This document shows, one piece after another, positions 3,000 through 40,020 of a stretch of 40,050 nucleotides of DNA. Numbering within the stretch: position 1 is the stretch's first letter; every line of letters starts with the position of its first letter. Origin of the DNA: a virus. Below the pieces are notes generated by a model, which worked only from the letters and a program-made list of their open reading frames with translations, had not been told where the DNA came from and searched no databases. The stretch lies in the IMG/VR virus record IMGVR_UViG_3300010167_000005, positions 1 through 40,050 of that record; one strand, written 5' to 3'. The position numbers were made by a program, and so were the translations under genes.

Positions 3000-3409
3000 T
3001 GTTAGGCTGTTTATCCGTCAAACCCTTTTACGCTTCAAAAATCTATCAAGGGTTGAAGACGATAGAGTTTAGGACAAAAGTGTTACCTGAAGGAGATTAC
3101 TTCATCTACTCCTCTGCACCAGATAAATCGGTCAACTGCATGTGCCATATCAATCTGATAGCAGGCGGAGAGGTCAACTTCGTCGATGATTGGCACGATA
3201 GCATATTCCGAAGTGGATGTATATCTCCTGCCGATCTTAAACAGTATCAAGGTAGCAAAAAAAGCATCTTTGCTCACAGGATTTCAAATGTGGTTAAGAT
3301 TAAGCCAGCGTTGAGTATTTACGATCTTATGCTTAATCGTCCGCCTCAATCATGGTGCTATGTCAACTTATCGCAGGTTGAAGTAGACGAATTGTTAAAG
3401 TTGGAATAG
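2981..3409 (+). CDS. ASCH / PUA-like domain protein
   Basis: LSVKPFYASKIYQGLKTIEFR matches the N-terminal ASCH signature (siKqPwa..I..G.KtiEiR). The true start is probably ATG 2996 or 2999. Confidence 0.55.
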   Translation: MSGVWMMLGCLSVKPFYASKIYQGLKTIEFRTKVLPEGDYFIYSSAPDKSVNCMCHINLIAGGEVNFVDDWHDSIFRSGCISPADLKQYQGSKKSIFAHRISNVVKIKPALSIYDLMLNRPPQSWCYVNLSQVEVDELLKLE

Positions 3410-3470
3410 TAATGTTTATATATTACCGTCCTATAACTATACATAACAACTATGGGAGTAGTGGTTAGAA
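3395..3470 (+). promoter_or_regulatory. Promoter-leader cassette copy P2
   Basis: TTAAAGTTGGAATAGTAATGTTTATATA lies at 3395-3422, with TTTATATA at 3415-3422. A 70-bp stretch is identical to P1. The box overlaps the LLKLE-stop of the ASCH gene. Confidence 0.7.
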
Positions 3471-4575: not shown

Positions 4576-4812
4576 TTGAAGGCGATTGCGGAGATTGTGA
4601 CCATGATGTCTTCGAATGCCTACTTGAGGAAAGATGCTTCTATTGTTCAAAGGAGAGTGAAGGATGTGTCTGCAGCAGGCTGTGAACATTTGAACGTATT
4701 TATGAAATGGCAGAGGGATATCAAACGCTGGAAATGCGTTATGTGTGGCAAGGTGTTTACACCTGAGGAAACGGAGCAGTATATCATTGAAAGGAGCAGG
4801 CGATTAAAATGA
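4576..4812 (+). CDS. Small hypothetical protein with C-terminal CxxC
   Basis: ORF-track model. An alternative two-gene model exists: a Cys-rich 44-aa ORF at 4551-4685 plus a GTG-started short ORF ending at 4812. Confidence 0.4.
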   Translation: MKAIAEIVTMMSSNAYLRKDASIVQRRVKDVSAAGCEHLNVFMKWQRDIKRWKCVMCGKVFTPEETEQYIIERSRRLK

Positions 4813-5555
4813 TAGGCAATCCCTTTGCTTGCTACCCTTATGACTGGACGTATAACGTTCCGTTCCTGGAAGTGTTTAGCGACGGTGTTAGCACATACGT
4901 CTACATAGATGATAAACCGTGCTACTTCCCTTCAGATATGTCAATAGAGGACATAGAAGGGTATGCAAGATTCTTCTACAATATCGAGCAGGATGTTCGT
5001 TCTCCTCACAGATATTTAACCTCTAACTTCGACGTGTCTGAGGATGATGTCGTCGTTGATTGCGGAGCAGCGGAAGGATTTTTTGCCTTGAGTGTTGCAG
5101 ATCGTGTTAAAAAAGTGTACGTTTTTGAACCCGATGTGAGATGGCTTGAGGCTTTGAGGAAAACTTTCGCACCGTATGACAATGTGGAGATAGTGACGAA
5201 ATATGTTTCAGATCATACCGATAAATATACTTTATCGCTGGATGATTTCTTCTACAAAAAAGATAAACCGACGTTTATCAAGATGGATATAGAAGGCGAG
5301 GAAGAAAGAGCACTCATCGGAGCAAGCGTTTTGCTGGAGACAAGTGTTAAGAAACTTGTTACCGCTTGTTATCATAGAGCGAACGATCTTTACCGGTTGA
5401 GTAAATATGCACAGAGAGCAGGATTTTTAACCTCGACGTCTGAAGGGTTTATTCTGACCAATTTTGACAACTGTGAACCGTATGCGAGGCGATGCTTACT
5501 TCGTGGAGAAAAATTACCCGCAGAAGATCGGCAAAAGTATAGGCCTTTTGTGTAG
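4809..5555 (+). CDS. FkbM-family SAM-dependent methyltransferase
   Basis: VVVDCGAAEGFFALSVADRVKKVYVFEPD is a Rossmann SAM-binding motif, followed by IKMDIEGEE. Both are typical of the FkbM family. Confidence 0.7.
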   Translation: MIGNPFACYPYDWTYNVPFLEVFSDGVSTYVYIDDKPCYFPSDMSIEDIEGYARFFYNIEQDVRSPHRYLTSNFDVSEDDVVVDCGAAEGFFALSVADRVKKVYVFEPDVRWLEALRKTFAPYDNVEIVTKYVSDHTDKYTLSLDDFFYKKDKPTFIKMDIEGEEERALIGASVLLETSVKKLVTACYHRANDLYRLSKYAQRAGFLTSTSEGFILTNFDNCEPYARRCLLRGEKLPAEDRQKYRPFV

Positions 5556-6269: not shown

Positions 6270-6652
6270 TGAGAGGAAAGATGGCATAGGCATCCCTTTC
6301 TGCCAAAAACATCCCATAGTTGGCAAAGTGTTTTATCCATCCCTCAAATCATCATCCTCCGTTAAACCCTTTCCAAACTTTTTACTTTTAACACTACTTA
6401 AAAAGCCAAATCTCCAGTCGTAATGATGGTTTTTGCAGATCGTGAAAAACCGATAAGTTTTTAAAGGGTACGGTTTTCATTTTTCTACTCGTTTTACTAC
6501 TCTCCGGACTTCATATTTAAACGCTTGTAGTAAAATCAGTAGTAAAAAGAGTGAAGAATGAATAAAGTGCTAATAGTGGCGACCTACATTACGACTGCAA
6601 CCTTCGTGAAAATGTATGCTAGCGTACACTTTTCGATAGGTTTTGTATACAC

Positions 6653-6718
6653 GAGTAGTAAAATGAAAACCATTTTTCACTCCGTTCTTCTACTCGTTTT
6701 ACTACAAACAATTGTTAA
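6653..6718 (+). repeat. Long repeat element, copy A
   Basis: 6671-6718 is identical (48/48) to 26682-26729. 6653-6705 matches the reverse complement of 26527-26579 at 50 of 53 positions. Confidence 0.9.
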
Positions 6719-6787
6719 TAGTATATAATACCATATCTAAACATTGTTAAGTTTTTTCAAAGGTGTATATATATGTTTTGTAAGGGG

Positions 6788-6795
6788 TTTATATA
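6788..6795 (+). promoter_or_regulatory. Candidate TATA box (TTTATATA) for the late/morphogenesis operon
   Basis: Exact TTTATATA about 160 nt upstream of the small terminase ORF. A box copy at 6810-6820 would sit at the predicted transcription start. Confidence 0.35.
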
Positions 6796-6951
6796 GGACG
6801 TAGGAAAACGAGTAGTAAAATAGGCCCTGTCAAACTGCTAACAAAAATGAATTTTATAAAGTAATATTGAACGGTTTCATTTTACTACTCTAAGAAAATA
6901 GCAAATAGCAAAAATAGTAAAAAATGATTGTAAACACGGTTAAGGGATAAG

Positions 6952-7596
6952 ATGATCGTTTTATGGGTGAAAATGGACGAAAGATACAATAGTTTTATAT
7001 TTCTATATTTTTATATCTGTTTTGTGACACCCGCAGTTAAAGGAGCAGATCGTCCATATCGTCCGGTGAATTTAAACAAATTGTGGCGTGAGCCAAAAAG
7101 ACTGGAGTTATTAACCCACTGGGCCAGAATGGGTCACAGCATAAAGAAGATATCTGAGATGATAGGTATCGACCCTGCAACGCTTTATGCCTGGATTAAA
7201 CTTTATCCGGAAGTGAAAGAGGCGTTGGAACAAGGTTGTGAAAGTGCAGATGAAGCAGTTGAAAGCGCTTTATGGAAAAGAGCAAAGGGATACAGTTATG
7301 ACGAAGTGAGTGTGCAATATGATGCTGATGGTAAAATCATTGATAGACGGGTTGTGACAAAGGAACTGCCTCCGGAACCGTCACTGGCTAAATATTGGCA
7401 AACGGTTAGAAAGAAGGGAGATTGGAACGAACGAATTATACTCGACGCTAACGTTAACATGGACATGCAGGTTAATGAATATAGTATAATACAAACATCA
7501 TCTGAAGTATTAAAGATTTTAAAGGCGAAAGGACTGGATGTGAAAGATATTGTCGAAGTGCTTGCCGATATTGAAACAGGAACTGAATCTAACTGA
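6952..7596 (+). CDS. terS: Terminase small subunit (HTH)
   Basis: SIKKISEMIGIDPATLYAWIKLYPEVKEALEQG is an HTH typical of small terminases, and the gene lies directly upstream of terL. The first 30 or so codons look non-coding, so the start is uncertain. Confidence 0.7.
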   Translation: MIVLWVKMDERYNSFIFLYFYICFVTPAVKGADRPYRPVNLNKLWREPKRLELLTHWARMGHSIKKISEMIGIDPATLYAWIKLYPEVKEALEQGCESADEAVESALWKRAKGYSYDEVSVQYDADGKIIDRRVVTKELPPEPSLAKYWQTVRKKGDWNERIILDANVNMDMQVNEYSIIQTSSEVLKILKAKGLDVKDIVEVLADIETGTESN

Positions 7597-9109: not shown

Positions 9110-11226
9110 TGTCTGGTAAGGAAGTTGGCGAGGAGATAATCACAGAGTTATTTAACCCTCGTCCGGACATTACGATCAAGCACATTTTGGCATCACGCTC
9201 AAATTATCTGGTTGAGAGTAACTTAACTCAACTGTTATCCATAGTCTTTCCATCGGATATGACTTATGATGTGTTTAACGCTGATGGCACAAAAAATGAG
9301 GCTGCTACACAAATTTTAACCAATATGGCTAAAAAACCATCGACTAACTTATGGTACTTCATGCAACAGACATATGACGATATCTTCACGTATGGAGCGT
9401 TGGTAGCAAATAAGTTCTACCAGCAAGATGAGGGTGTGTGGGTGTTGCACTTGAGGCGATTACCGCCTGAAACATTCAGCGAAACGCCGAGTGAGGTTAA
9501 AGGTACATCGTCCATCTTTATGCCCGGACTTATCTCAACATCGAAAGGTATACGTGCTTTCCAAACTTCGACCGATGATACCGGCAATACTCACACGGTT
9601 GAAATCCCAGAAGACAGTTTGCTAATCTTCACAGACCCCAGATATGCAAGTAAGGTAGGGGGCGAGAGTAAACTCAAGTCCATCGTTCCCTTGTTACAAA
9701 ACCTAAACGACGGGTACGTTATGTTTAAACGTGCATCGAGGCGTGCTGGAGACCCGAAGGTTATGGTCAAACGCCCGGCGGATGTGGCTAAAAAGTTAAC
9801 ACCTGAGGAAAGGAACGATCTTAAAAAGTTCTTATCTGACCAAACTGAGAACGGTGCAGTACTGTTACCCGATGGAATGGACGCTCAAGGGGTTCCTATA
9901 AACGCTAACAATATGTGCGAACGGTACTTGACTGTATGTATCCAGCAGATAAAGGACTTCTTTAACCCTACGAGTTGGTTATCAAGTACAGGTACGGCGT
10001 TATCGGAAAGTGGTAAAGCACGGTTGGAGTTAATAAAATTAGCCGTAGCAGGACAGCAGTCTATGGTGGAAGACCATATCGAAGGTGTGTTGAATGAGTG
10101 GCTGGAGATAAATGGTTGGACTGGCTGTACCGTGACAATAACGATCAATAACGCTAACGTGTCAAATGAAGCAGCGCAGGCAAAAATCGTAGAAACGTTG
10201 AGGAAGGAGAAGTTATGTTTTATCAACGAAGGGAGACAGATAATGGGCTTGCCTGCACTTGATGAAGAACAACTTAAGTTATTAGAAGAGGAATATGGCT
10301 CATCAAACGACACATTAGCATCACTACTCACATTCGGCCCTGAAGGGAGACGGCTTCATTCCAACCATGCTGGCATTTCCTCCTTCGTTAATGTAGGCGA
10401 GGAGCACGAACCTAACAGAGCCGAAGCCATTCTTACTAAAGAGTTGGTCAACGTCGGTCAGGAAGTGACAGATAGTATAGTGTCAACGCTAACGGACACG
10501 GGTGTTGACAGGCAGCGGATAGATACAAGTATCGGCATGATGGAGAGAAGGACGGTTGTTAGTCTATCTCAAAATGCTGGCAGGCAATATGCCATCGGAA
10601 GTACTGAAGCGTATACTCGCATGCAAATGGTTCCTGATGGGTTATCTATCATGCAGAGAACGCAGGCATTTACGGAAGATTACGTCAATTTAGCGATAAA
10701 AGAGGGCGTGACGATCATCGACGGCGAGAAGAATAATTGGATATCTCGCTTCCAGGAAGAGCAAAGGGTAGATATATACGATATCATAACGAAAGGGATG
10801 GAAGAAGGCAAGTACCCTGGAGTAAAAGAAGGTGTTAGAGGCGGGTATGCGCAAAACACGATAGGTTACGATCTGCAAGAGTACTTTAATGATAGAAGGT
10901 CACACACCACAACCGTAGCAAGGACGGAGAGTGGTAGAATAATGAATATGGGACACCTTGAGACGTATGCTGAGATGGGTGTTACCCGTGTCCGCGTGCT
11001 CGATGGTGACGGAGCAAACTCGTGCGACGTGTGCAACATGATAAACGGTCAGGAATGGCCGGTAGATTATGCTATGGACCATACCCTTGAGCATCCTAAT
11101 TGCGTTAGGGATTTTATACCGATAAAGCCGAGAGGCGGGTATGCTGTTAACAATATCCCAGTTAAATTATTTAAGGAGAGACAGTTATTACTTAAAATGC
11201 CGTATCAATTTGTGGTGGGAAGATGA
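9109..11226 (+). CDS. Portal protein fused to a Mu F / SPP1 gp7-like head-morphogenesis domain (705 aa)
   Basis: Positioned directly after terL. The C-terminal RTESGRIMNMGH...CDVCNMINGQEW...EHPNCVRDF matches the Phage_Mu_F signature. Confidence 0.8.
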   Translation: MSGKEVGEEIITELFNPRPDITIKHILASRSNYLVESNLTQLLSIVFPSDMTYDVFNADGTKNEAATQILTNMAKKPSTNLWYFMQQTYDDIFTYGALVANKFYQQDEGVWVLHLRRLPPETFSETPSEVKGTSSIFMPGLISTSKGIRAFQTSTDDTGNTHTVEIPEDSLLIFTDPRYASKVGGESKLKSIVPLLQNLNDGYVMFKRASRRAGDPKVMVKRPADVAKKLTPEERNDLKKFLSDQTENGAVLLPDGMDAQGVPINANNMCERYLTVCIQQIKDFFNPTSWLSSTGTALSESGKARLELIKLAVAGQQSMVEDHIEGVLNEWLEINGWTGCTVTITINNANVSNEAAQAKIVETLRKEKLCFINEGRQIMGLPALDEEQLKLLEEEYGSSNDTLASLLTFGPEGRRLHSNHAGISSFVNVGEEHEPNRAEAILTKELVNVGQEVTDSIVSTLTDTGVDRQRIDTSIGMMERRTVVSLSQNAGRQYAIGSTEAYTRMQMVPDGLSIMQRTQAFTEDYVNLAIKEGVTIIDGEKNNWISRFQEEQRVDIYDIITKGMEEGKYPGVKEGVRGGYAQNTIGYDLQEYFNDRRSHTTTVARTESGRIMNMGHLETYAEMGVTRVRVLDGDGANSCDVCNMINGQEWPVDYAMDHTLEHPNCVRDFIPIKPRGGYAVNNIPVKLFKERQLLLKMPYQFVVGR

Positions 11227-26109: not shown

Positions 26110-26439
26110 TTAAAAGCAAGGGTCGTAATACTTTTCTCTATACCCTACTACAAACCTCTGATCGTGTCCAACAACCTTCCATCCTCTCTTCGTTTTTATG
26201 AGTGTGAGTATTTCGCCGTCTGGGTTAGGCGTGTACTTATATTCCTGGTGCTCGCTCTGACAGGTTCCGCCTACGAGTTTTGCGTCGTCTTCCTGCACCC
26301 TTATCTTCTTCTGTGTGATGACTTCTATGACTGTGTACGGGTATCTGTCGCTCCACATGACCTTCGTCGCTCCCGTACCAACTTCTATCTTCTCTACGCC
26401 TGCTCCTTCCATCATTCTGTTCTGAACGCTTCCATACAT
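26110..26439 (-). CDS. Hypothetical protein (109 aa), first gene behind P5
   Basis: The ATG (MYGSVQ...) lies 9 nt after GGAGG in a leader resembling those of P1-P3. The track start is an upstream TTG at 26448. Confidence 0.6.
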   Translation of the reverse strand: MYGSVQNRMMEGAGVEKIEVGTGATKVMWSDRYPYTVIEVITQKKIRVQEDDAKLVGGTCQSEHQEYKYTPNPDGEILTLIKTKRGWKVVGHDQRFVVGYREKYYDPCF

Positions 26440-26511
26440 TTTTGCCAACCTCCATAGTTGATAGATATAGTATACAACTTAAGTATATAAATATTACTAT
26501 TAGAACTTTAA
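26440..26511 (-). promoter_or_regulatory. Promoter-leader cassette copy P5 (leftward)
   Basis: The reverse complement of 26484-26511 is TTAAAGTTCTAATAGTAATATTTATATA. The leader is caactatggaggttggcaaaaATG. Confidence 0.65.
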
Positions 26512-26526
26512 TGTAACAATAGTTAA

Positions 26527-26579
26527 GTAGTAAAACGAGTAGTAAATCGGAGTGAAAAATGGTTTTCATTTTACTACTC
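26527..26579 (-). repeat. 53-bp element, inverted copy
   Basis: The reverse complement matches 6653-6705 at 50 of 53 positions. Confidence 0.9.
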
Positions 26580-26681
26580 TCACGGTTGGAGGACCTAAAC
26601 AAAATTTAGGTGCAGAATTTTGGCTGATAAAAATAAATGTGACACCTTTACACCTGAGTAGTAAAACAACTCATTTTTACT

Positions 26682-26729
26682 CATTTTTCACTCCGTTCTT
26701 CTACTCGTTTTACTACAAACAATTGTTAA
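26682..26729 (+). repeat. 48-bp element, direct copy
   Basis: Identical to 6671-6718 (catttttcactccgttcttctactcgttttactacaaacaattgttaa). Confidence 0.95.
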
Positions 26730-26898
26730 GTATATTTATTGCTTACGTAAAAATAGATGATCATTTATATAATGTAGTAAAATGAAGGGTGGTTTCAAAC
26801 TGCGTATAAAAATCAAAATATATAATAATATGACAGGATTATTTGCTTCATTTTACTACTCACAACTTAATTGTATAATATTTCTATATATCCATATA

Positions 26899-26906
26899 TT
26901 TATATA
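26899..26906 (+). promoter_or_regulatory. Candidate TATA box for the rightward replication operon (probable leaderless first gene)
   Basis: TTTATATA starts 29 nt upstream of the ATG at 26928. No Shine-Dalgarno site lies between them. Confidence 0.45.
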
Positions 26907-26927
26907 ATTATATTTTAATATCATTCT

Positions 26928-27314
26928 ATGTACTTGCGGCTATGGACGGAAGCGTATACGAGCGTTGAGGAGTTCAACTTCGACCTGGCTGATCGGATGA
27001 AATGCTATATGGCGATGGTTGATATAGCGTTTGACACAGAGTATTTCGAGCAACGGTTGAATATGCTATCCGCTAAGTTTGACTGGTCGGCAGTAGGTAC
27101 GTTTGAGAGATATTGGTTGACAGTGAAGAAATACTTCTTTGAGATTGGCGGAGCAGCGATATTGAGAAAGATATTCAAGGGTACGGTTGACGATAAAGAT
27201 ATGCGGAAGGAGTTTGAGAAAAGAATAGGGTATGAGAATTTATCTTCTGCTTTAGACGAATTAGATTGCTCAGAGATAACAAGAGAAGAGTACAGGGAGT
27301 TGAACAAGGTATGA
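26928..27314 (+). CDS. Hypothetical protein (128 aa)
   Basis: First ORF of the rightward unit. Confidence 0.6.
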   Translation: MYLRLWTEAYTSVEEFNFDLADRMKCYMAMVDIAFDTEYFEQRLNMLSAKFDWSAVGTFERYWLTVKKYFFEIGGAAILRKIFKGTVDDKDMRKEFEKRIGYENLSSALDELDCSEITREEYRELNKV

Positions 27315-27472
27315 GAGGCAAAACTGAAATAATGTTCTCTGCATACGCAGATCGAAACCTCTACGCTGAATTATGCAAAGAAGCGATAGAGCGGGGCGTG
27401 AATCGTTCCATAATAATAGACGAAATGCTTGCGGAGAGATATCGTGCTAAAATTAATGCAACATCAGACTAA
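27311..27472 (+). CDS. Ribbon-helix-helix (CopG/Arc-like) DNA-binding protein (53 aa)
   Basis: ATGA-coupled start. IMFSAYADRNLYAELCKEAIERGVNRSIIIDEMLAERY fits the RHH pattern of a beta strand followed by two helices. Confidence 0.6.
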   Translation: MRGKTEIMFSAYADRNLYAELCKEAIERGVNRSIIIDEMLAERYRAKINATSD

Positions 27473-28808
27473 AACGGTCAAACTATCAGATCATGTAGAG
27501 CAGCACGCTCTTCTATGGACGATGGGTACGGGCAAAACTATCGCTACTTGGAGCATATTAGCAAATCTATTGCATCAAGGTAAGATAAAGAACGGGTTAA
27601 TCGTCTGTCCAATCCAGGTAATAGGGGCGTGGGAAGATGATCGTAAGCGGTTTGGCGAGAAAACTCAAGAATTGTTATCCGCAATAAAAATCATAAATTA
27701 TGAAAAACTCCATCGCCGAAAAGAGGCTTATGCCGCTGATTGGGATGCTATTGTAGTAGACGAGAGCCACATGATATCGAATAGAAAATCTCTCCGTTTC
27801 AAAACGTTGGGGATAATGGTACGGAAGGAGCAGTACCGCTTCATATTATCTGGCACGCCGATAGGTAATGCTCGAATGGAAGACTACTTCTCTCAATTTA
27901 AGTTTTTGTTGGGAGAGGAGTTTCCTTTCAAATCCTATAAATCATTTTTAGACGCATACTTTTCATACGATTTAAGTGAGAGTAGAGCCACGGGAGCGAG
28001 ATTTTATGACAGAGTTTATTGCAATAGAATTGATGAGTTATTACGCTGGATAGCGCCATACTCCTCTCGATATGATAAGTCCGTATTATCTGATTTATTG
28101 GAACCGTTGCCACCAACTGTTCACAAGGTTGAGTTGAGTGACAAAAACTTAGCGATTTACAAGCAGTTAAAGAAGAGCAAGGTAATAATATCTGATGATG
28201 GCTCCATAGTAGCAGATCGTGCGCTAACCTTGCTCATACGGTTGCGCCAGTTATCTTCACATATATTCTCAGCCGAAGAAGGGTACGTGGAGATAATCAG
28301 AGAAAAGGACAAGTTAACGCCTAAAATACAGGCGTTAGCGGACATATTAAGAAGTAAAAATATTATTGATGATGATAATATCTCAACTAAGCAAGGTAGC
28401 AAAATCGTGATATTTGTCGACTGGGTGGAGAGTATGGAGCAGATAACACGCTTCTTAAGATCGGCTGGCGTGAAATATGAGCAGATGGGCAATGGCGTGA
28501 CAGGGCATGAGCATTGGCAAAACTTCCAGGCGGATGATAACATTAAGGTTTTTGTTGGTAACTATCGCTCCATATCTCTCGGCGTGCAGTTATTTTCAGC
28601 AGATACTGCCATCTTCTTCGAACCGACGCTATCATCCCAGCAGGATACGCAGGCAAGATCAAGAATACATCGAAAGGGGCAGAAGGGGATTTGCAGTTAT
28701 ATTTACCTTATAGCAAAGGGTACAGTGGAAGAGGAGATATACAATAGACTGAAACATTTTGAAGATTTTTTTAATAAAATGTTCCTAAATTACCTTAAGT
28801 TGGAATAG
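27444..28808 (+). CDS. SNF2-family (SF2) DNA helicase / translocase
   Basis: Motifs MGTGKT (motif I), VVDESH (motif II), LSGTP (motif III) and a C-terminal QDTQARSRIHRKGQ (motif VI). The likely start is GTG 27444, 7 nt after GGAG. TTG 27429 and ATG 27456 are alternatives. Confidence 0.85.
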   Translation: MLKLMQHQTKTVKLSDHVEQHALLWTMGTGKTIATWSILANLLHQGKIKNGLIVCPIQVIGAWEDDRKRFGEKTQELLSAIKIINYEKLHRRKEAYAADWDAIVVDESHMISNRKSLRFKTLGIMVRKEQYRFILSGTPIGNARMEDYFSQFKFLLGEEFPFKSYKSFLDAYFSYDLSESRATGARFYDRVYCNRIDELLRWIAPYSSRYDKSVLSDLLEPLPPTVHKVELSDKNLAIYKQLKKSKVIISDDGSIVADRALTLLIRLRQLSSHIFSAEEGYVEIIREKDKLTPKIQALADILRSKNIIDDDNISTKQGSKIVIFVDWVESMEQITRFLRSAGVKYEQMGNGVTGHEHWQNFQADDNIKVFVGNYRSISLGVQLFSADTAIFFEPTLSSQQDTQARSRIHRKGQKGICSYIYLIAKGTVEEEIYNRLKHFEDFFNKMFLNYLKLE

Positions 28809-28856
28809 TAATATATTTATATAGAGATATTAATATATCAGACAGAGGTTACAAAA
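28795..28856 (+). promoter_or_regulatory. Promoter-leader cassette copy P4 (divergent copy)
   Basis: TTAAGTTGGAATAGTAATATATTTATATA lies at 28795-28823 and overlaps the YLKLE-stop of the SNF2 gene. The leader ends GAGGTTACAAAAATG. Confidence 0.55.
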
Positions 28857-31384: not shown

Positions 31385-31738
31385 ATGGACTTCCCTAAGC
31401 AGGAGAACGACAAACCACTTAAACTCATTCCTTATGAGTCAGATATACGCAAAAGATGCGACAATCTGATGAAAAAAAGGGGTGCGTATATCTGTCCTGT
31501 CAATCAGGACGAAAGAGGTTCGTCGGGCGCTCCGGACAGAGTGTACTGCTACAAGGGAATGTTTATCGCCGTTGAGTATAAGAGAAGCGCGAGCGAAAAG
31601 GCATCAAGACTGCAACTGCACCATAAGGACATGATAAGATCAGCGGGTGGCAAATGGTATCTGATATGGAGTAGCGAGCAGTTAGAATTGGAAATGCACA
31701 TATTAGAAGGGACGATCAATGCCGAAAAGAAAAAATGA
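31385..31738 (+). CDS. VRR-NUC / Holliday-junction-resolvase-like PD-(D/E)XK nuclease
   Basis: GAPDRVYCYKGMFIAVEYK gives the D...E.K catalytic pattern. The ATG at 31385 lies just after the upstream stop. Confidence 0.65.
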   Translation: MDFPKQENDKPLKLIPYESDIRKRCDNLMKKRGAYICPVNQDERGSSGAPDRVYCYKGMFIAVEYKRSASEKASRLQLHHKDMIRSAGGKWYLIWSSEQLELEMHILEGTINAEKKK

Positions 31739-33704
31739 CTTTACACAATTCAACGAATGCTTTAACGCATCCGATTCACGTTGCTACGTGATTTGCGATG
31801 CGAATAAGCAACGAAGGAATAGTGAAGTGTACAGTTATCAAGAAGCAAAGGAGTACCTTGAGAAAGGTGCTCTCATAGGGTTCATTTTACCGAAAAACAT
31901 TATCGTTATGGACTTTGATAAAACTGTTTCACAATACATCTTAAGTCTAACGAAATGGGATACAAACCCTAACGATATAACCCATTCCACAACGCCGAAC
32001 GGAATGCACGTTTGGCTTAAATCTGAAGAGGAATATGCTAGCGATATATTGACAATGTGCGGTATATCTGCACGTGTCTATCGTGAAGGGAAATATGTCA
32101 TTCTTCCTTATGGGTGTGATGATAGAGAATTTGTTCAGATGGACGCGTTGAAAGGGTATGATTTCTACCCGATGCTTAAACCGTTGGAATATACTTCGCG
32201 TCCTATATTTAACATACCTATTCCTACTGATGCCTATATAGACACGCTGAAAAGATATGTTCAGATATTAGAAAATGAAGGCTACGATCAGATAGGCATC
32301 GGTGTAGCGTTGACATGGATTAATGATAAGTTAGCTGAAGAGTCAATTCCTCGTGATGTGCTAATTAACAGTGTTATCGGCGATGCCAGAGATATCTCAT
32401 TCATGGACGGAAATAAATTCGACCATGTCAAAATGGTGGATTTTTTCATAGCCAGGTATCCGATGGTTGTCCGCAATGATAGAGTATTTGTCTATTTCGA
32501 CGGCGTGTACAAAGAAGCGGAGAAGTTTATCGAGAATATGACAGTGTACCATCATCCGCCGATTAAGATGGCACAGCGTAAAGAGGTTATCGAAACGTTG
32601 CGGATTAAGGTTAGATCAAAAGAAAAGAAGATGGCGATGAGTAAAAATGTTGTCAACTTTAAGAACGGTACCGTATCGGTTGAAAAATACGGTCAACTTA
32701 ACCCTCATCTACCTGAAACGGTTCTATTCCAGCAGATATCTGCCAATTTTGATTCACAATGGCAGTCTAAAGAGATGCTGGATGTAGACAGATATTTTAA
32801 AGATGTTACGCAAGGCGATGAGCAGTTAGAGAAATTCCTCTATCAATTAATCGGGTACTGCTTAATACCTAACCTGGTATGGGATAAGGCGTTTATCTTA
32901 TGGGGACCCACAGCGGATAACGGTAAGTCCACATTCCTCAAGGTTCTAACAGCAGTAGTAGGTAAAGATAATGTGTCATCGGTATCGTTAAAGCAGATAG
33001 TTGACGATAAGTTCTCACTGGTTAAGACGAATCACAAACTTGTCAATTTGCAAGGAGAGACGTCAACAGCATATTTAGAAGATATCGCTATTTTTAAACA
33101 AATTGTTACCGGAGACGATATTTTAGTGCAGGAGAAAAATCAGCCAGCGTTCATGATGACACCGAGTTGCAAACATATCTTTGCAACAAACGAGTTCCCG
33201 AAGATAAGGGATAAATCAAACGGATTTTATCGACGTGTTTTTGCTGTTGAGTTTAAGGCGAAATTTAGCGAGGAACAGAAGGCTAAATTCAGCATTGATA
33301 ATATCACGCACCAGCAGGCGCTGGACTATATCGCCAGTCGTGCCATATATGAGTATAGCGAAGTTGTGAGGACAAGGACCTGGGCCAAATCCGATGCTTC
33401 TGATATGCTCGTAAATCAGATCAAAATAACCTCATCAAGTGTTGCAGAGTTTTGGTCGAAAGAGATATTAGAAGGGGAGCACATAAACCGTCCGGAATTA
33501 TACACTCGCTATCAAGCCTTTTGCGATGCTGAGGCGGTGAAACATGTGACTGGAAAGAAATCTTTTTATAATGAGTTAAGATTATTTTATCCAGACGAGT
33601 ATAAAGAGTACGGTTCCAACGGGCAGATTTACATAGAAAAAGTTAAGAAGGAAGAAAAGAAACAAGAGGAAGAGAAAAATGAGGTTCTATACAAGCTCTT
33701 TTGA
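31719..33704 (+). CDS. Bifunctional primase-polymerase (prim-pol) + D5/P4-type SF3 helicase
   Basis: The N-terminal part has IVMDFDK (DxD) and TPNGMHVW (sGxH). The helicase part has Walker A WGPTADNGKST and a P4/D5-type C-terminal region. Confidence 0.85.
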   Translation: MPKRKNDFTQFNECFNASDSRCYVICDANKQRRNSEVYSYQEAKEYLEKGALIGFILPKNIIVMDFDKTVSQYILSLTKWDTNPNDITHSTTPNGMHVWLKSEEEYASDILTMCGISARVYREGKYVILPYGCDDREFVQMDALKGYDFYPMLKPLEYTSRPIFNIPIPTDAYIDTLKRYVQILENEGYDQIGIGVALTWINDKLAEESIPRDVLINSVIGDARDISFMDGNKFDHVKMVDFFIARYPMVVRNDRVFVYFDGVYKEAEKFIENMTVYHHPPIKMAQRKEVIETLRIKVRSKEKKMAMSKNVVNFKNGTVSVEKYGQLNPHLPETVLFQQISANFDSQWQSKEMLDVDRYFKDVTQGDEQLEKFLYQLIGYCLIPNLVWDKAFILWGPTADNGKSTFLKVLTAVVGKDNVSSVSLKQIVDDKFSLVKTNHKLVNLQGETSTAYLEDIAIFKQIVTGDDILVQEKNQPAFMMTPSCKHIFATNEFPKIRDKSNGFYRRVFAVEFKAKFSEEQKAKFSIDNITHQQALDYIASRAIYEYSEVVRTRTWAKSDASDMLVNQIKITSSSVAEFWSKEILEGEHINRPELYTRYQAFCDAEAVKHVTGKKSFYNELRLFYPDEYKEYGSNGQIYIEKVKKEEKKQEEEKNEVLYKLF

Positions 33705-34608
33705 CGCAATGACATGCCATGTCCACGGCGTCGTATTATCGCCGGTCCACTTAGAGAGTAATTTTGATGCAAGTAATTACAAAGTATTCATCGACAGCGG
33801 AGGGTTTACCGACGTTCATGCTCACAAAAGATTGACGTATCGAGAGGCGTTGGACAGACAGATAAAAATAGCAGGAAGATTAAACGCTACTCCGGAGATG
33901 CTGGCAGGGTACGACCTTATCTCTCCGCTATGCTTCCCATCGTCAACTCGCAAATTTAAATCGCCAGAAAACGATCATGCGATAGAAACGACAATCAAGG
34001 CAGCGGAGTGGTTTGATAAACATCGTGATGAGATGCTCGGTGCAAGTCCAATGTTCATTCTCCAGGGTGCATGGCCGAGTGATTTCATGCACTGTTTGGA
34101 ACACATCGTCCCTCTACTTGAAGAAGGAGATACTATCGGCTTCGGGTCGTCGGCGTCAAACAACGACAAAATAAAGCAGAGACTAAGAGAAATAACTGCT
34201 GGTACTTGCGCTAAACTGCAAGGCACAGCCTGCAATAAAGTTCATTATTTAGGGCTATCGCCAATCAACGATCTCTGCCAGTTTGACACATATTGCAGAC
34301 AGAGAGGGATTGACCCCTCATATGACACTTCATCGTATATCAGAAGGTGCGCTTTCGGAGACATCAGTGCACCGCCAGACTTCAACGAAACGGTTGATGC
34401 CTTGTCTAAGTTAGACAAGCAGAGAAGATGGACGTATTTTAATATATCCGTCGGTTCAGTGCAGGCGTTTTGGGACCATTGGAATTTTTATTTCGATGAC
34501 TTGAGTTTGGACGAATATAACTTTGAAGAATTTAAAACCAAGAATGACATCAAGTATGACGAGTTCATGGCTGGACAAAACGCTTTAGACAAATGGGTGA
34601 AAAAATGA
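33679..34608 (+). CDS. dpdA: DpdA-like DNA/tRNA-guanine transglycosylase family protein
   Basis: FIDSGGF matches the TGT catalytic DSGGF motif. HYLGLS ... YDTSSY matches the second TGT/DpdA motif block. Size is DpdA-like (309 aa). An alternative start is ATG 33709. Confidence 0.7.
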   Translation: MRFYTSSFDAMTCHVHGVVLSPVHLESNFDASNYKVFIDSGGFTDVHAHKRLTYREALDRQIKIAGRLNATPEMLAGYDLISPLCFPSSTRKFKSPENDHAIETTIKAAEWFDKHRDEMLGASPMFILQGAWPSDFMHCLEHIVPLLEEGDTIGFGSSASNNDKIKQRLREITAGTCAKLQGTACNKVHYLGLSPINDLCQFDTYCRQRGIDPSYDTSSYIRRCAFGDISAPPDFNETVDALSKLDKQRRWTYFNISVGSVQAFWDHWNFYFDDLSLDEYNFEEFKTKNDIKYDEFMAGQNALDKWVKK

Positions 34609-35339
34609 TAGATTTAGGTGTAGAGAAAAAATTAGGTTCGGACACCGTGAAGCACATCTATATTGGGTTGATGGTTATGGCTTTGCTCATTTCCAACATC
34701 ATCGCAATGAGGATGATTCACGTGGGTGAACTGTTTGGATTGGAGATATATGTCACGGGTGCGGTATTCACATACTTCATCTGCTTTTTGATGACAGATA
34801 TTCTCTCAGAGAAGTTTGGAAAGAAGGTTGCAAAGGATGCCATTAAGGCGGGTGTTGTAGCACAGTTGATAGCATTTGCGCTGATAATGATCGTCGTATT
34901 CGTCGTTCCGGTTGGACCGACTGACTGGGACGTTGATATGCTAGCGGCGTATAAGATGATATTCACTGTCAACGGATTCATAATAGCAGGAAGCATAACT
35001 GCTTTCTACATATCGCAGAATCTGGACGTGAAGATATTCCATGTGTTAAGGCATAAGTTCCGAGACAAGAAATGGGTCAGGTCATCGTCGACAATACTGT
35101 CACAGTTAGTTGACACGCTGATAATGACGTTCATAGCGTTCGTCATCCCGATGTGGCTCGGACTTGAAGGGTCGTTACCGTTCATCATATTGCTCGGCAT
35201 GCTGGCCGGAGAGTATATGCTCAAGGTTGCTTTGGCGGCGTTGGACACTCCGATATTCTACCTGCTAACAGGCGGTAGAAGAACGCAGGAAAACTTCGAC
35301 GATGCGAACAAACAGATAGAGGAGACAAAAAATGGCTAA
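34605..35339 (+). CDS. yhhQ: YhhQ/Vut-family queuosine-precursor (preQ0) transporter
   Basis: FTYFICFLMTDILSEKFGKKVAK and ISQNLDVKIFHVLRHKFRDKKWVRSSSTILSQLVDTLIMTFIAF align closely with E. coli YhhQ blocks. The protein is multi-pass. ATGA-coupled start (ATG 34593 is the alternative). Confidence 0.85.
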   Translation: MIDLGVEKKLGSDTVKHIYIGLMVMALLISNIIAMRMIHVGELFGLEIYVTGAVFTYFICFLMTDILSEKFGKKVAKDAIKAGVVAQLIAFALIMIVVFVVPVGPTDWDVDMLAAYKMIFTVNGFIIAGSITAFYISQNLDVKIFHVLRHKFRDKKWVRSSSTILSQLVDTLIMTFIAFVIPMWLGLEGSLPFIILLGMLAGEYMLKVALAALDTPIFYLLTGGRRTQENFDDANKQIEETKNG

Positions 35340-35724
35340 AAGTGAAGAAAGAACAGAGGAGAAAGTGACAAAGATCGGCGACGTAATGTACGCCGTTTCT
35401 TCTGAGCGTGTCACGTGTCCGTTCTGCAAGGGTACAGAGAAGTTGGACCGAACGATATTCATACCGGCGGTGTTGCAAGGCAACGTCAAATGTGTATGCA
35501 ATGGCGGGTGGTTCTTTGCTCCGTATCGTGTCGTTGAAGGGAAAGTCGCAGAGATAATCCTGCGTGAAACGGCAGAAGGAGTGCAGAAGAAATACGTCAT
35601 GGACTTCGGGCAAAGAAACGAGGAAAGAGATGAACGTCTGTATTCAAACAAAAAGGACGCCGAAGGATTGGCAGCGGAACTGAACGATCAGTATGACAAA
35701 CTCGAGGTGGTCCTTCGTGCGTAA
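35332..35724 (+). CDS. Hypothetical zinc-binding protein (130 aa)
   Basis: CPFC ... CVC Cys pairs. Confidence 0.55.
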   Translation: MAKSEERTEEKVTKIGDVMYAVSSERVTCPFCKGTEKLDRTIFIPAVLQGNVKCVCNGGWFFAPYRVVEGKVAEIILRETAEGVQKKYVMDFGQRNEERDERLYSNKKDAEGLAAELNDQYDKLEVVLRA

Positions 35725-35956
35725 AAGCATAGACGTTCGTTCGCTCAGCCTGACAAACGAGGAAAAAGATGACCTTCTCTCCCTTATCTATTTTCACAGA
35801 GCAGGTCCGGGTAGAGCGATAGTGCTCATACTTAACGATAGGGGCAAAACGTGTGAACAGATAGCGGATATCGTCGGCGTTGAGCGTTCAACGGTCTATG
35901 AATCTCGCAGAATAGGACGTAAGAGGAGAAGTGAAACAGATGAAGACAGCATTTGA
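35717..35956 (+). CDS. HTH DNA-binding protein (sigma-70 region-4 / LuxR-like)
   Basis: LTNEEKDDLLSLIY...GKTCEQIADIVGVERSTVYESRR. The GTG at 35717 lies 6 nt after GAGGTGG. The track ATG at 35693 overlaps the previous gene. Confidence 0.6.
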   Translation: MRKSIDVRSLSLTNEEKDDLLSLIYFHRAGPGRAIVLILNDRGKTCEQIADIVGVERSTVYESRRIGRKRRSETDEDSI

Positions 35957-36260
35957 GGACGTCATGGCGGTCAAACTGTCAGGCGAGCAGTTGAAGAGAG
36001 CGATGTTCGTTCAACAATTTACCAAATATGATATTGTTGACAGCATCGTTATTGCAACGCTCTACTGCGATTTCGGCGATGAAGTGCATCTCAAGACGTT
36101 GTCGAAAAGAATCAATATGCATGGCGAAGATGTTCGAGCAAAACTGAACGTTCTTCGGTCAAGGCTGGATAATCAGCAGACACTTGACGAAGGCGTGACG
36201 TATGGACAGCAGTTGTGCAAGGCGATGAATTGCAAGCCGTTTGACTTCAAGGATGTGTGA
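35931..36260 (+). CDS. Hypothetical protein (109 aa)
   Basis: ORF in the operon. Confidence 0.5.
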   Translation: MKQMKTAFEDVMAVKLSGEQLKRAMFVQQFTKYDIVDSIVIATLYCDFGDEVHLKTLSKRINMHGEDVRAKLNVLRSRLDNQQTLDEGVTYGQQLCKAMNCKPFDFKDV

Positions 36261-37063
36261 CCATGGCGGATACGACAGTATTGATAACCGGAAAGAACAA
36301 AATACTCAGAGAAGCGTTCACAATCGGCAGTATCGTCAGAACATCGCTCGACGCGATAAGAATGACGATAGAGGAAGATAAGATAGAACTGTTAGGACTG
36401 GATGCGGCGAAGGCGATCGTTATCGAATATGTCCTTGAGTCAGATACAGCAAAAGGATTGAAGATAACGTCAACAATCGGCGATTCTCCAGGCAAAGACC
36501 CTAACGGCGAAGTTATCCCTGGTAATGTGATGCAGATAGACCCGAGAGAGATACTTGAAGGTTTAAAGAAGGGCGATGCCAGCGATGATGCAAGCATATC
36601 TTTCGGCAAGGAGAACACGGTCGTCAAGACAGGAAGGATAACGAGGAAGTACAGAACAAAATCTGCAATTCTCATTCCGTCAGCGTGGAAAGTGCCAAAC
36701 TTACCGATGACAGCGGCGGCAGTGATGAAGAAGGAACTGTTCCAGTCCTTATTCCGTCCGTTGGACGATCTCGAGCAGATACGCGTCAAGTTCTCGCCGG
36801 AAGGGATAGATGTACGAGCGGAAGAAGAGCACATCATTAAAGGAGAGACGTATGTCAAGGTGGCAGAATGTAGCAAATTTGTTTCAAAAGAAACGTTTGA
36901 CGTTCTGTTCGGAACGGAGTACTTCGTCGGAATAGCGAATTATATCCCTTCAGATATCGTTGACGTGACCTTGAAGATGGCTGCTAACATGCCTGCGTAT
37001 GTGTTTTTCGGTTCTGTTCGCTGTATATTGGCACCGAGAATCGATGATCAGCCAATGGAGTGA
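36257..37063 (+). CDS. pcn: PCNA-type DNA sliding clamp
   Basis: The size is PCNA-like (268 aa). The N-terminal pattern ...IVRTSLDAIRMTIEEDKIELLGLDAAKAIVIEYVL parallels archaeal PCNA (LIDEAAFKVTEDGISMRAMDPSRVVLIDL). The C-terminal ...FGSVRCILAPRIDD parallels ...GRLTFLLAPRVEE. Confidence 0.75.
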   Translation: MTMADTTVLITGKNKILREAFTIGSIVRTSLDAIRMTIEEDKIELLGLDAAKAIVIEYVLESDTAKGLKITSTIGDSPGKDPNGEVIPGNVMQIDPREILEGLKKGDASDDASISFGKENTVVKTGRITRKYRTKSAILIPSAWKVPNLPMTAAAVMKKELFQSLFRPLDDLEQIRVKFSPEGIDVRAEEEHIIKGETYVKVAECSKFVSKETFDVLFGTEYFVGIANYIPSDIVDVTLKMAANMPAYVFFGSVRCILAPRIDDQPME

Positions 37064-37092: not shown

Positions 37093-37165
37093 TTAAAGTT
37101 AGAATAGTAATGTTTATATACAACTTAAGTATTACTACTATTACAACTATGGGAAGTGGTTAAAA
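37093..37165 (+). promoter_or_regulatory. Promoter-leader cassette copy P3
   Basis: TTAAAGTTAGAATAGTAATGTTTATATA lies at 37093-37120, preceded by oligo-T tracts. The leader is caactatgggaagtggttaaaaATG. Confidence 0.65.
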
Positions 37166-39554: not shown

Positions 39555-40020
39555 ATGACTAACTTAAGTGTGCATTTTTCATCCGATAGCGTTGAGCGGG
39601 CAACTCCGCAAGATATCTTTGACAAGTTGAATGAAGAGTTCGACTTTCAATTGGACGTTTGCGCTACCGATACAAATGCTAAGTGCGATATGTATTACAC
39701 AAAAGCAGAGAACGGATTGGAACAAGACTGGAGCGGTTATCGTTGCTGGATGAATCCTCCTTATGGACGTGAGATCGGCAAATGGGGTCAAAAAGGCAGC
39801 AGATGCCTTTGCTGATAACACACAGAAAGGGTTGTGTGTTTGCCTTGTGCCTTGCAGAACAGATACGCGCTGGTGGCAGGATGATGCTATGAGATGCACG
39901 GAGATCAGGCTGATAAAGGGACGATTAAGGTTTAATGATAAAGACGGCGCTCCATTTCCTTCTGCTTTACTGATATTTGGCACAAAAAAGATGCCGATCA
40001 TAAGAACGTATGAGGTATGA
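39555..40020 (+). pseudogene. dam: Phage-type Dam N6-adenine DNA methyltransferase, split by a 1-nt frameshift
   Basis: ORF 39555-39815 carries ATPQDIF...FDFQLDVCA...NPPYG. ORF 39763-40020 in the +1 frame carries the rest (VKKAADAF...LVPCRTDTRWW...GRLRF). Removing one G from GGGG at 39784-39787 restores ...GKWVKKAADAF... Confidence 0.8.

Follow-up and report, generated by a model that had tools for sequence, protein, structure and literature searches.

What is the intergenic region at positions 26440-26927 of IMG/VR virus record IMGVR_UViG_3300010167_000005 for: does it control transcription, start replication, or do both? The window, by which we mean the whole stretch of DNA analysed (40,050 nucleotides (nt), positions 1 to 40,050 of that record), has nearly all of its genes on the plus strand, and the region in question, called region B below, separates the sole leftward unit from the rightward replication/recombination block. 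The original prediction saw here a divergent control region with inverted arms around an easily melted spacer, and likened it to archaeal and phage origins or else to a genetic switch. Our follow-up of the sequence indicates that B is a real, conserved and well-defined module of the cis-regulatory or iteron kind. We tentatively favour the reading that B and a second region, A, are copies of a shared operator module that controls a second class of promoters and is bound by a virus protein, either a candidate ribbon-helix-helix (RHH) protein or a helix-turn-helix (HTH) protein.

The repeat module and its copies

A short repeated box, GAGTAGTAAAA, is the most over-represented word in the genome of about 39.9 kb and is confined to two intergenic regions, A (6472-6925) and B (26525-26861). 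Searching with AGTAGTAAAA and allowing at most one mismatch gave 18 matches where 3.0 were expected (the maximum in 100 shuffles was 7), and 16 of the 18 fall inside A and B; GTAGTAAAA, the commonest 9-mer in the genome, occurs 13 times, every time in A or B. These are the only local repeat clusters in the genome, with about 10 sites per module, and the boxes are found only there, in front of the two largest operons that run rightward. The box is asymmetric, 11-12 bp long and present in both orientations. Within the arrays the units are 12 bp and position-specific, the third unit of every triple array being GGAGTGAA(A/G)AATG. Copies of the box on host chromosomes were considered and rejected, since an 18-mer extended box gave 24 single matches in GTDB, scattered over bacterial genomes at chance level, and none in archaeal genomes.

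Region B contains, in map order:

26484-26500, minus strand: class-I promoter cassette ATAGTAATATTTATATA, predicted to drive the leftward gene
26514-26525, no strand assigned: imperfect palindrome TAACAATAGTTA, flanking the left arm on its outer side
26525-26579, plus strand: left composite arm, made of three tandem 12-bp units (AAGTAGTAAAAC GAGTAGTAAATC GGAGTGAAAAAT), an 8-bp link (GGTTTTCA) and one inverted unit (TTTTACTACTC)
26580-26655, no strand assigned: spacer of 76 nt, unconserved between A and B, containing a 7-bp hairpin (26593-26611)
26656-26718, minus strand: right composite arm, made of one plus unit, a duplicated ACTCATTTTT link and three tandem minus units
26682-26729, plus strand: 48-bp block identical to 6671-6718, covering the three minus-orientation units and the palindrome AAACAATTGTTAA
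Between the right arm and the next element, reading left to right: right palindrome AAACAATTGTTA
26730-26739, plus strand: TATA-like element GTATATTTAT, abutting the palindrome
26764-26782, plus strand: TTTATATA followed directly by a plus box (ATGTAGTAAAA), the box itself at 26772-26782
Between the plus box at 26772 and the minus box at 26851: conserved word TCAAACTGC
26851-26861, minus strand: single box converging on the one at 26772, with 68 nt between the cores
26899-26930, plus strand: proximal class-II promoter, with TTTATATA at 26899-26906, 29 nt before ATG 26928, and no Shine-Dalgarno sequence

The elements listed in the original prediction (the left-pointing cassette, there called P5, the arms, the hairpin, the 48-bp block, the boxes and TTTATATA) are all present where it had placed them, and its divergent control region with inverted arrays of predicted protein-binding repeats is borne out by two arms that each consist of three tandem units plus one inverted unit (the '3+1' layout). 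The arms pair with each other over 35 nt at 91% complementarity. The left palindrome has counterparts at 26717-26728, 6706-6717 and 6738-6749, and in a related virus, L069 (AACAATTGTT, AACACTGTT).

The spacer between the arms had been described as AT-rich and easily melted, and that description has to be given up. At 36.8% GC, compared with 26% for region B overall, the spacer is the GC-richest and most stable part of B, and its 40-bp stacking energy (-46 to -51 kcal/mol) is close to the genome mean of -52.3. The genome-wide stability minimum is at 26874-26925, in the proximal promoter region just 5' of ATG 26928, and other minima coincide with promoter cassettes. The spacer is not a melting or unwinding element. 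Its hairpin (ACCTAAA-caaaa-TTTAGGT) is marginal, a stem of at least 7 bp arising in 4% of shuffles, and has no counterpart in the spacer of region A; nor are the short open reading frames (ORFs) inside the two spacers conserved between A and B.

The features of region A are:

6472-6925, plus strand: module A, with arrays at 6472-6502 (minus), 6525-6560 (plus) and 6653-6707 (one plus unit, three minus units)
Distal part of module A: TTTATATA at 6788, boxes at 6800-6820, a single box at 6880-6890 (minus) and degenerate units at 6900-6925
6994-7026, plus strand: proximal TATA element of terS, TTTATATT, and the corrected terS start, GTG 7024, placed by alignment with the terS proteins of the relatives L069 and L073

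Positions 6440-6960 align with 26490-26940 in the same order and orientation, colinear over about 400 bp with the TATA elements included; the alignment takes in the 48-bp block (the longest exact match between A and B), the pair of TTTATATA and box, the word TCAAACTGC and the final inverted box. On this alignment region A is a paralogue of B, and the two promoter regions have been duplicated whole, in the same orientation, before both operons. The earlier suggestion that one factor acts at both loci thus gains from the comparison: the same factor very probably acts at 6270-7023. The two 48-bp blocks form a direct repeat, with 20,011 bp from one to the other on the 39,927-bp circle. They lie within 48 bp of exactly opposite positions, which would happen by chance about 0.5% of the time, a figure judged post hoc. 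A Logan contig of 19,889 bp ends inside B and has the size expected if it spans from module to module.

The longest ORF of terS starts at 6952; alignment with the relatives moves the start to GTG 7024, 30 nt after the start of the TATA element, which suggests a leaderless terS mRNA. An equal TATA-to-ATG distance of 164 nt in A and B was dropped once the start had been corrected. On the minus strand at 6311-6400, region A also holds what looks like a decayed leftward leader, CAACTATGGGAT and then an ATG with a 17-codon ORF, and a degenerate stretch resembling a B recognition element (BRE) and TATA box lies about 50 nt upstream of it; these remains suggest that a leftward gene was formerly driven by module A as well.

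How well is the module kept in other viruses? The comparison covers two partial relative genomes, L069 and L073/L070, with TerL proteins 60-72% identical; their replication halves are not among the recovered sequence. Both carry a related module upstream of terS. The full layout is present in L073/L070 (TerL about 60%), where inverted 56-nt arms, 80% complementary, surround a 70-nt spacer and consist of three tandem units plus one inverted unit, with the box CCAGGAAAAA at 10-11-bp spacing. TATA-like elements abut both outer arm ends, TTTAAATA at 1206 is directly followed by the box TTCCAGGCGCTGGAAAAAT, and a converging pair of boxes lies 64 nt apart. In L069 (TerL about 72%) the arms are shorter and the boxes related (GGTGTAAAAT, CAGTGAAAATG, AGTAGAAAAAATTGAAAAC), and the palindrome is retained with its adjoining element TGTTAAGTATATTT. 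The spacer of L073 also carries a second type of repeat (1068-1106, alternating TGTCT-N6-AGACA-N6-TGTCT-N6-AGACA) that is not in the window's spacers.

The sequence of the box therefore varies among the window and its relatives (GTAGTAAAA, AGTAGAAAAA/GTGTAAAAT, CCAGGAAAAA) while the layout is kept. Because the layout stays as the sequence drifts, the binder is likely to have co-evolved with its sites, which points to a virus-encoded protein and argues against a fixed host factor. The position of the sites relative to predicted TATA and BRE elements is kept as well. The pairing of a TATA element with a plus box is found in B (26764), A (6788-6820) and L073 (1206-1233) despite the changed box sequence, with TTTATATA as its first member in the window and TTTAAATA in L073. 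The outer arm ends abut TATA-like elements in the window and L073, and the palindrome in the window and L069; in B, the palindrome occupies the BRE position of the TATA element at 26730, whose counterpart is TGTTAAGTATATTT in L069, with TTATATTTAAAA at the equivalent place in L073.

The predicted promoters of the genome fall into two classes, since the first genes behind all four modules have a TATA element at -29 or -30 without ATAGTAAT, a word that is part of five cassettes elsewhere. The class-I cassettes have the form ATAGTAAT-N(1-3)-TTTATATA, a BRE-like element plus a methanogen 'box A' TATA, and each lies 33-48 nt upstream of an ATG with a Shine-Dalgarno sequence:

770-786, 3406-3422, 28805-28823 and 37104-37120, plus strand, and 26484-26500, minus strand: class-I cassettes (17 bp)

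Four of the five also have a conserved leader, CAACTATGG(G)AG, about 25 nt later and just before the start codon; cassette and leader together look like a virus-specific unit of strong archaeal promoter and 5' untranslated region. Bacterial sigma-70 promoters were tried and rejected, the matches being weak and the conserved 17-bp cassette not fitting the -35/-10 spacing. Class II comprises two promoters in the window, both predicted to be leaderless and each preceded by a box module: one for the gp128-RHH-SNF2 operon after B (ATG 26928, where the missing Shine-Dalgarno sequence predicts the leaderless start), the other for terS and the structural genes after A (TATA at 6994, start at 7024). 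The terS genes of the relatives match them, with TATA elements at -29 in both L073 (1365 to a GTG at 1394) and L069 (722 to 751). Both operons thus appear to begin with leaderless class-II promoters.

Operator, origin or packaging site

We compared four readings of the module and rank an operator first, an origin of the phage P4 type second, a terminase site third and an Orc1-type origin last. The operator comes first because the boxes or the palindrome stand beside a TATA element in every module, the pairing has survived the turnover of the box sequence, the promoter regions were duplicated in one orientation, an RHH-like gene is present, and the archaeal plasmid pRN1 offers a precedent in which the genes for a repressor and for the prim-pol/helicase share a transcript (PMC4234260). 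The proteins that may bind the module under one or other of these readings are:

27311-27472, plus strand: candidate RHH protein of 53 amino acids (aa), encoded by the second gene of the operon after B, called on the copy of the genome in ENA
35693-35956, plus strand: HTH protein of 87 aa, the alternative candidate (Pfam HTH_23, 5.7e-05, 23.2 bits, under the 24.6-bit cut-off; PHROG terS-HTH matches weak)
31719-33704, plus strand: P4-family primase-helicase of 661 aa with a C-terminal Pox_D5 domain, candidate origin-binding initiator

How might an operator of this kind work? In the simplest scheme, A and B would be arrays of an asymmetric 11-12-bp site for one virus-encoded sequence-specific protein, most likely the small RHH candidate and otherwise the 87-aa HTH protein, while class-I promoters would be read by the host TBP, TFB and RNA polymerase alone. 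The protein would fill both '3+1' arms cooperatively and would also occupy the boxes directly downstream of TTTATATA, and the AACAATTGTT palindrome at the BRE position may be the site of a second factor. Joint binding would then shut the upstream and divergent promoters and time both class-II operons, with the outcome that the replication module and the packaging/structural genes are co-regulated. What the sequence shows is the sites themselves, how they are arranged and duplicated, their conservation with altered sequence in the relatives and where they stand with respect to TATA elements; which protein binds them, whether it represses or activates, and where transcription really starts are inferred. 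A bidirectional operator had already been proposed in the original prediction; the conserved boxes next to TATA elements speak for that part of the proposal. Its further idea of a switch between lysis and a carrier state is unsupported, because no integrase or cI-like function turned up among the 38 proteins scanned with Pfam (the non-structural genes, the lysis-region ORFs and terS; a subset was also scanned with NCBIfam).

Several points weigh against the operator. Both candidate regulators are generic, and the RHH candidate matches Pfam RHH_1 at E = 0.001 and 19.4 bits, just under the 20.5-bit cut-off. An asymmetric box would suit monomeric winged-helix or HTH domains, such as the origin-binding domains of initiators, better than symmetric RHH dimers. 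The last box lies 37, 103 or 59 nt from the proximal TATA element, and such unequal distances give no fixed geometry for an activator. Left-facing TATA-like elements in A and L073 have no convincing leftward gene, so the two-fold symmetry of the module is not explained by transcription alone. No second module with the same arm was found for the L073 virus, scans of the metagenome and IMG/VR yielding only the known locus and chance matches. Finally, one of the virus's own proteins is an initiator-type helicase, which should require iterons, and the genome has no other repeat cluster to supply them.

This last point leads directly to an origin like those of phage P4 and the SaPI elements, which we consider possible but doubtful. 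Here the boxes would be iterons for the C-terminal origin-binding domain of the primase-helicase, two hexamers would load on the inverted '3+1' arms, and A would be a second origin or a cis site like crr of P4; the promoters would be interleaved with the origin, and binding of the initiator may regulate them too. The protein itself is a good match. It passes TIGR01613 (165.6 bits against a cut-off of 108.7), has the Pfam order D5_N-DUF5906-Pox_D5 of the P4 alpha protein (Pox_D5 at 24.8 bits against 21.4), aligns with P4 alpha by BLASTP at 3e-15 through the C-terminal domain, and matches SaPI5 PriRep5 (PDB 7OLA) at 1e-31; its C-terminal domain alone gave no sequence match in PDB. The C-terminal winged helix of PriRep5 binds iterons on both sides of its origin in opposite orientations (PMC9371898), and the annotated P4 record has three tandem type-1 repeats (10-11 bp) plus one inverted repeat 13 bp away in a divergent control region, with the same repeats at crr, about 5 kb away. 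The boxes of B are likewise asymmetric and in both orientations, its arms (26525-26579 and 26656-26718) flank a centre and have equivalents in A and L073, A and B are the sole repeat clusters available to such an initiator, and the least stable DNA of the genome lies 12 nt from the last box. The origin of the original prediction therefore acquires a genuine precedent in the P4-family primase-helicase and loses its AT-rich centre: unlike SaPI and P4 origins, B is at its most stable and GC-richest between the arms. The module also lies 4.8 kb upstream of the initiator gene instead of beside it, an origin requires neither the pairing of TATA element and box nor an orientation-preserving duplication of promoter regions, and the related archaeal replicon pRN1 has no iterons (PMC4234260). 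Cumulative GC skew and skew at 4-fold sites, which are weakly informative, show no change at A or B.

A terminase recognition site of the pac or cos type is improbable. Under this explanation phased A-tract boxes would wrap around the TerS ring through its HTH domains, the cut would fall in the spacer, and B would be a second, regulatory or decoy copy. We place it third because the module precedes terS in three viruses (A in the window, L069 and L073). In its favour, an HTH is found at the N-terminus of TerS, the units contain A-tracts and are phased at 10-12 bp, the genome assembled in circular or permuted form, and in P1 pac and lambda cosB repeated sites flank or adjoin the cut. It is difficult to reconcile this with the position of B, 20 kb from terS at the head of the replication operon; only the paralogue A adjoins terS, and we know of no precedent for a 40-kb genome that carries equivalent pac sites at two opposite positions. 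Most improbable of all is an origin dependent on host Orc1/Cdc6, with the boxes as origin recognition boxes (ORBs) or mini-ORBs around a duplex-unwinding element (DUE), the analogy from which the original prediction set out and which is now largely refuted. The box tail AAATGAA(G)GG at 26779-26788 does superficially resemble an ORB segment of M. intestinalis, GGAAATGAAGGGGT (PMC4153887). Compared with five published ORB sequences, from Methanomassiliicoccales or archaeal consensus (PMC4153887), though, the best box needs 6 edits over 22 nt, the same as unrelated sites in the window, so that the match is at chance level, and the boxes lack the TTCC...GGAA dyad on which Cdc6 binding depends (PMC1904270). 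Related viruses differ in the sequence of the box, no archaeal genome in the GTDB set contains the extended box, the spacer is not AT-rich and provides no unwinding element between the arms, and no orc1/cdc6 or other AAA+ initiator was found among the scanned proteins.

Operator and origin are compatible readings and do not exclude each other, since the P4 origin itself lies inside a divergent control region. The origins of SV40 and papillomaviruses also lie within divergent control regions. It is thus conceivable, although we think it unlikely, that this archaeal tailed virus has a P4-like bipartite origin, in which opposite iteron modules are bound by its own primase-helicase and the complexes double as a timing switch for the replication and packaging operons. 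If true, a methanogen virus would have fused its origin with promoter control in the manner of SV40.

The genome and its probable host

Because its first and last 123 bases are identical, the window is a genome that assembled as a circle of about 39,927 bp. ENA ERZ27257304 contains this genome too, as a MEGAHIT contig of 40,068 bp, and part of it is found in Logan SRR10512951. Around the two modules, its genes are arranged as follows:

7024 to about 25800, plus strand: terS-terL-portal-capsid-tail block
26062-25856, minus strand: second leftward gene, following the 109-aa gene
26110-26439, minus strand: leftward gene for a protein of 109 aa, function unknown (in the ORF list and the gene calls on the ENA copy), which with the preceding entry makes up the sole leftward unit (26439-26110 plus 26062-25856)
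From 26928, plus strand: replication/recombination block (gp128, RHH-like, SNF2 helicase, PD-(D/E)XK exonuclease, nuclease, P4-family primase-helicase, DpdA-like, YhhQ)
35.3-40 kb and 0.1-6.3 kb: small genes

The host is probably a methanogenic archaeon, as suggested indirectly by the portal and capsid matches, by the sharing of the leftward gene with a Methanomassiliicoccaceae provirus, and by the cassettes of BRE-like element and box A TATA. Of 50,697 phage records, the portal protein and the major capsid protein each match a single one, BK063669.1, which belongs to a virus assigned to Methanomicrobiales. The 109-aa protein matches phrog_33370 (function unknown) and has a homologue of 63% identity in the provirus, which comes from the same sample and is integrated in a Methanomassiliicoccaceae contig; beside the provirus lie an integrase and an AdoMet synthetase of archaeal type, and a Methanomassiliicoccaceae protein belongs to the 90% cluster of this synthetase. 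Homologues of 52% identity occur in Enterococcus genomes and plasmids (897 contigs), a cross-domain spread that is unusually wide for a small accessory gene. Between the operon with the 109-aa homologue and a small HTH gene, the provirus (L001/L071) has a divergent control region of its own, at about 5030-5190 in L071, in which TATA-like elements are surrounded by repeated TATACCATAA-type boxes.

The virus has no close cultured relatives. Megablast and blastn against phage records found nothing, and the same was true of IMG/VR scans with gp128, SNF2 and the primase and of a GTDB scan with TerL. No comparable module is found in the virus vir524 (BK063669), which is too distant. The homologues of YhhQ come from mixed taxa and give no information on the host, and the window contains no Rfam families and no tRNAs.

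Genes elsewhere in the window (33679-35339, 90-770, 39555-40020 and 4809-5555) make up a DNA-modification toolkit. A weak DpdA/tRNA-guanine-transglycosylase-like protein adjoins the YhhQ queuosine-precursor transporter, which hints at 7-deazaguanine modification; there are also a C5-cytosine methylase, an FkbM/RrnaAD-like methyltransferase and a Dam-like methylase in two overlapping frames, of which only the first, an ORF of 86 aa, is covered by the Pfam match. A 268-aa protein (36257-37063) has only a weak match to a beta-clamp C-terminal domain, and its C-terminus, ILAPRIDDQ, resembles the LAPRIE with which the PCNA of vir524, a methanogen virus, ends; an AlphaFold model built from the single sequence of the 268-aa protein was unusable (pLDDT 30.6).

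Significance and comparison with known control regions

Very few viruses of methanogenic archaea have been characterised, and next to nothing is known about gene timing and the start of replication in archaeal tailed viruses. The module offers a defined 11-bp site in an exact architecture, three or four candidate binders and two predicted promoter classes. With a layout that is kept while the site sequence changes, it is a natural system for the co-evolution of binding specificity, and it could supply orthogonal regulatory or replication parts for methanogen genetics. Rather than a new kind of element, it is a variation on viral control regions that are already known, and the known systems differ in how much they share with it.

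The resemblance to an archaeal oriC goes no further than inverted repeats on either side of an intergenic spacer; the window has no ORB consensus, no DUE between the arms and no orc1/cdc6 among the scanned proteins. SaPI origins share a homologous helicase (7OLA, 1e-31) and opposed iterons on both sides of a centre (PMC9371898), whereas their iterons are 5-6 bp, their centre is AT-rich, and their ori lies immediately downstream of rep at a single locus. P4 comes closer, with an initiator of the same family (TIGR01613; D5_N-DUF5906-Pox_D5), short asymmetric repeats, three in tandem and one inverted, in a divergent control region, and the same repeats at a second locus nearly half-way round the circle. 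The P4 repeats, however, measure 8 bp, recur every 10-11 bp and surround an AT-rich stretch (9361-9395), while the window's units are 11-12 bp around a GC-richer centre. The window protein has neither Toprim nor zinc ribbon by Pfam and differs in its N-terminal primase domain, and P4 has a bacterial host, whereas the host here is probably archaeal and the binding is a prediction.

The operators of small archaeal repressors, such as pRN1 ORF56 with ORF904, share with the window a small repressor-type gene in or near the replication operon, repeated sites at or next to TATA and BRE elements, and one regulator for several promoters. SSV1 F55 and SIRV1 SvtR are reportedly further small repressors with operators in archaeal viruses. 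The module in the window departs from this pattern in having far more sites (about 10 per module), '3+1' arms that are two-fold symmetric and 70-93 bp apart, an RHH assignment that is sub-threshold, and a whole 400-bp module in duplicate.

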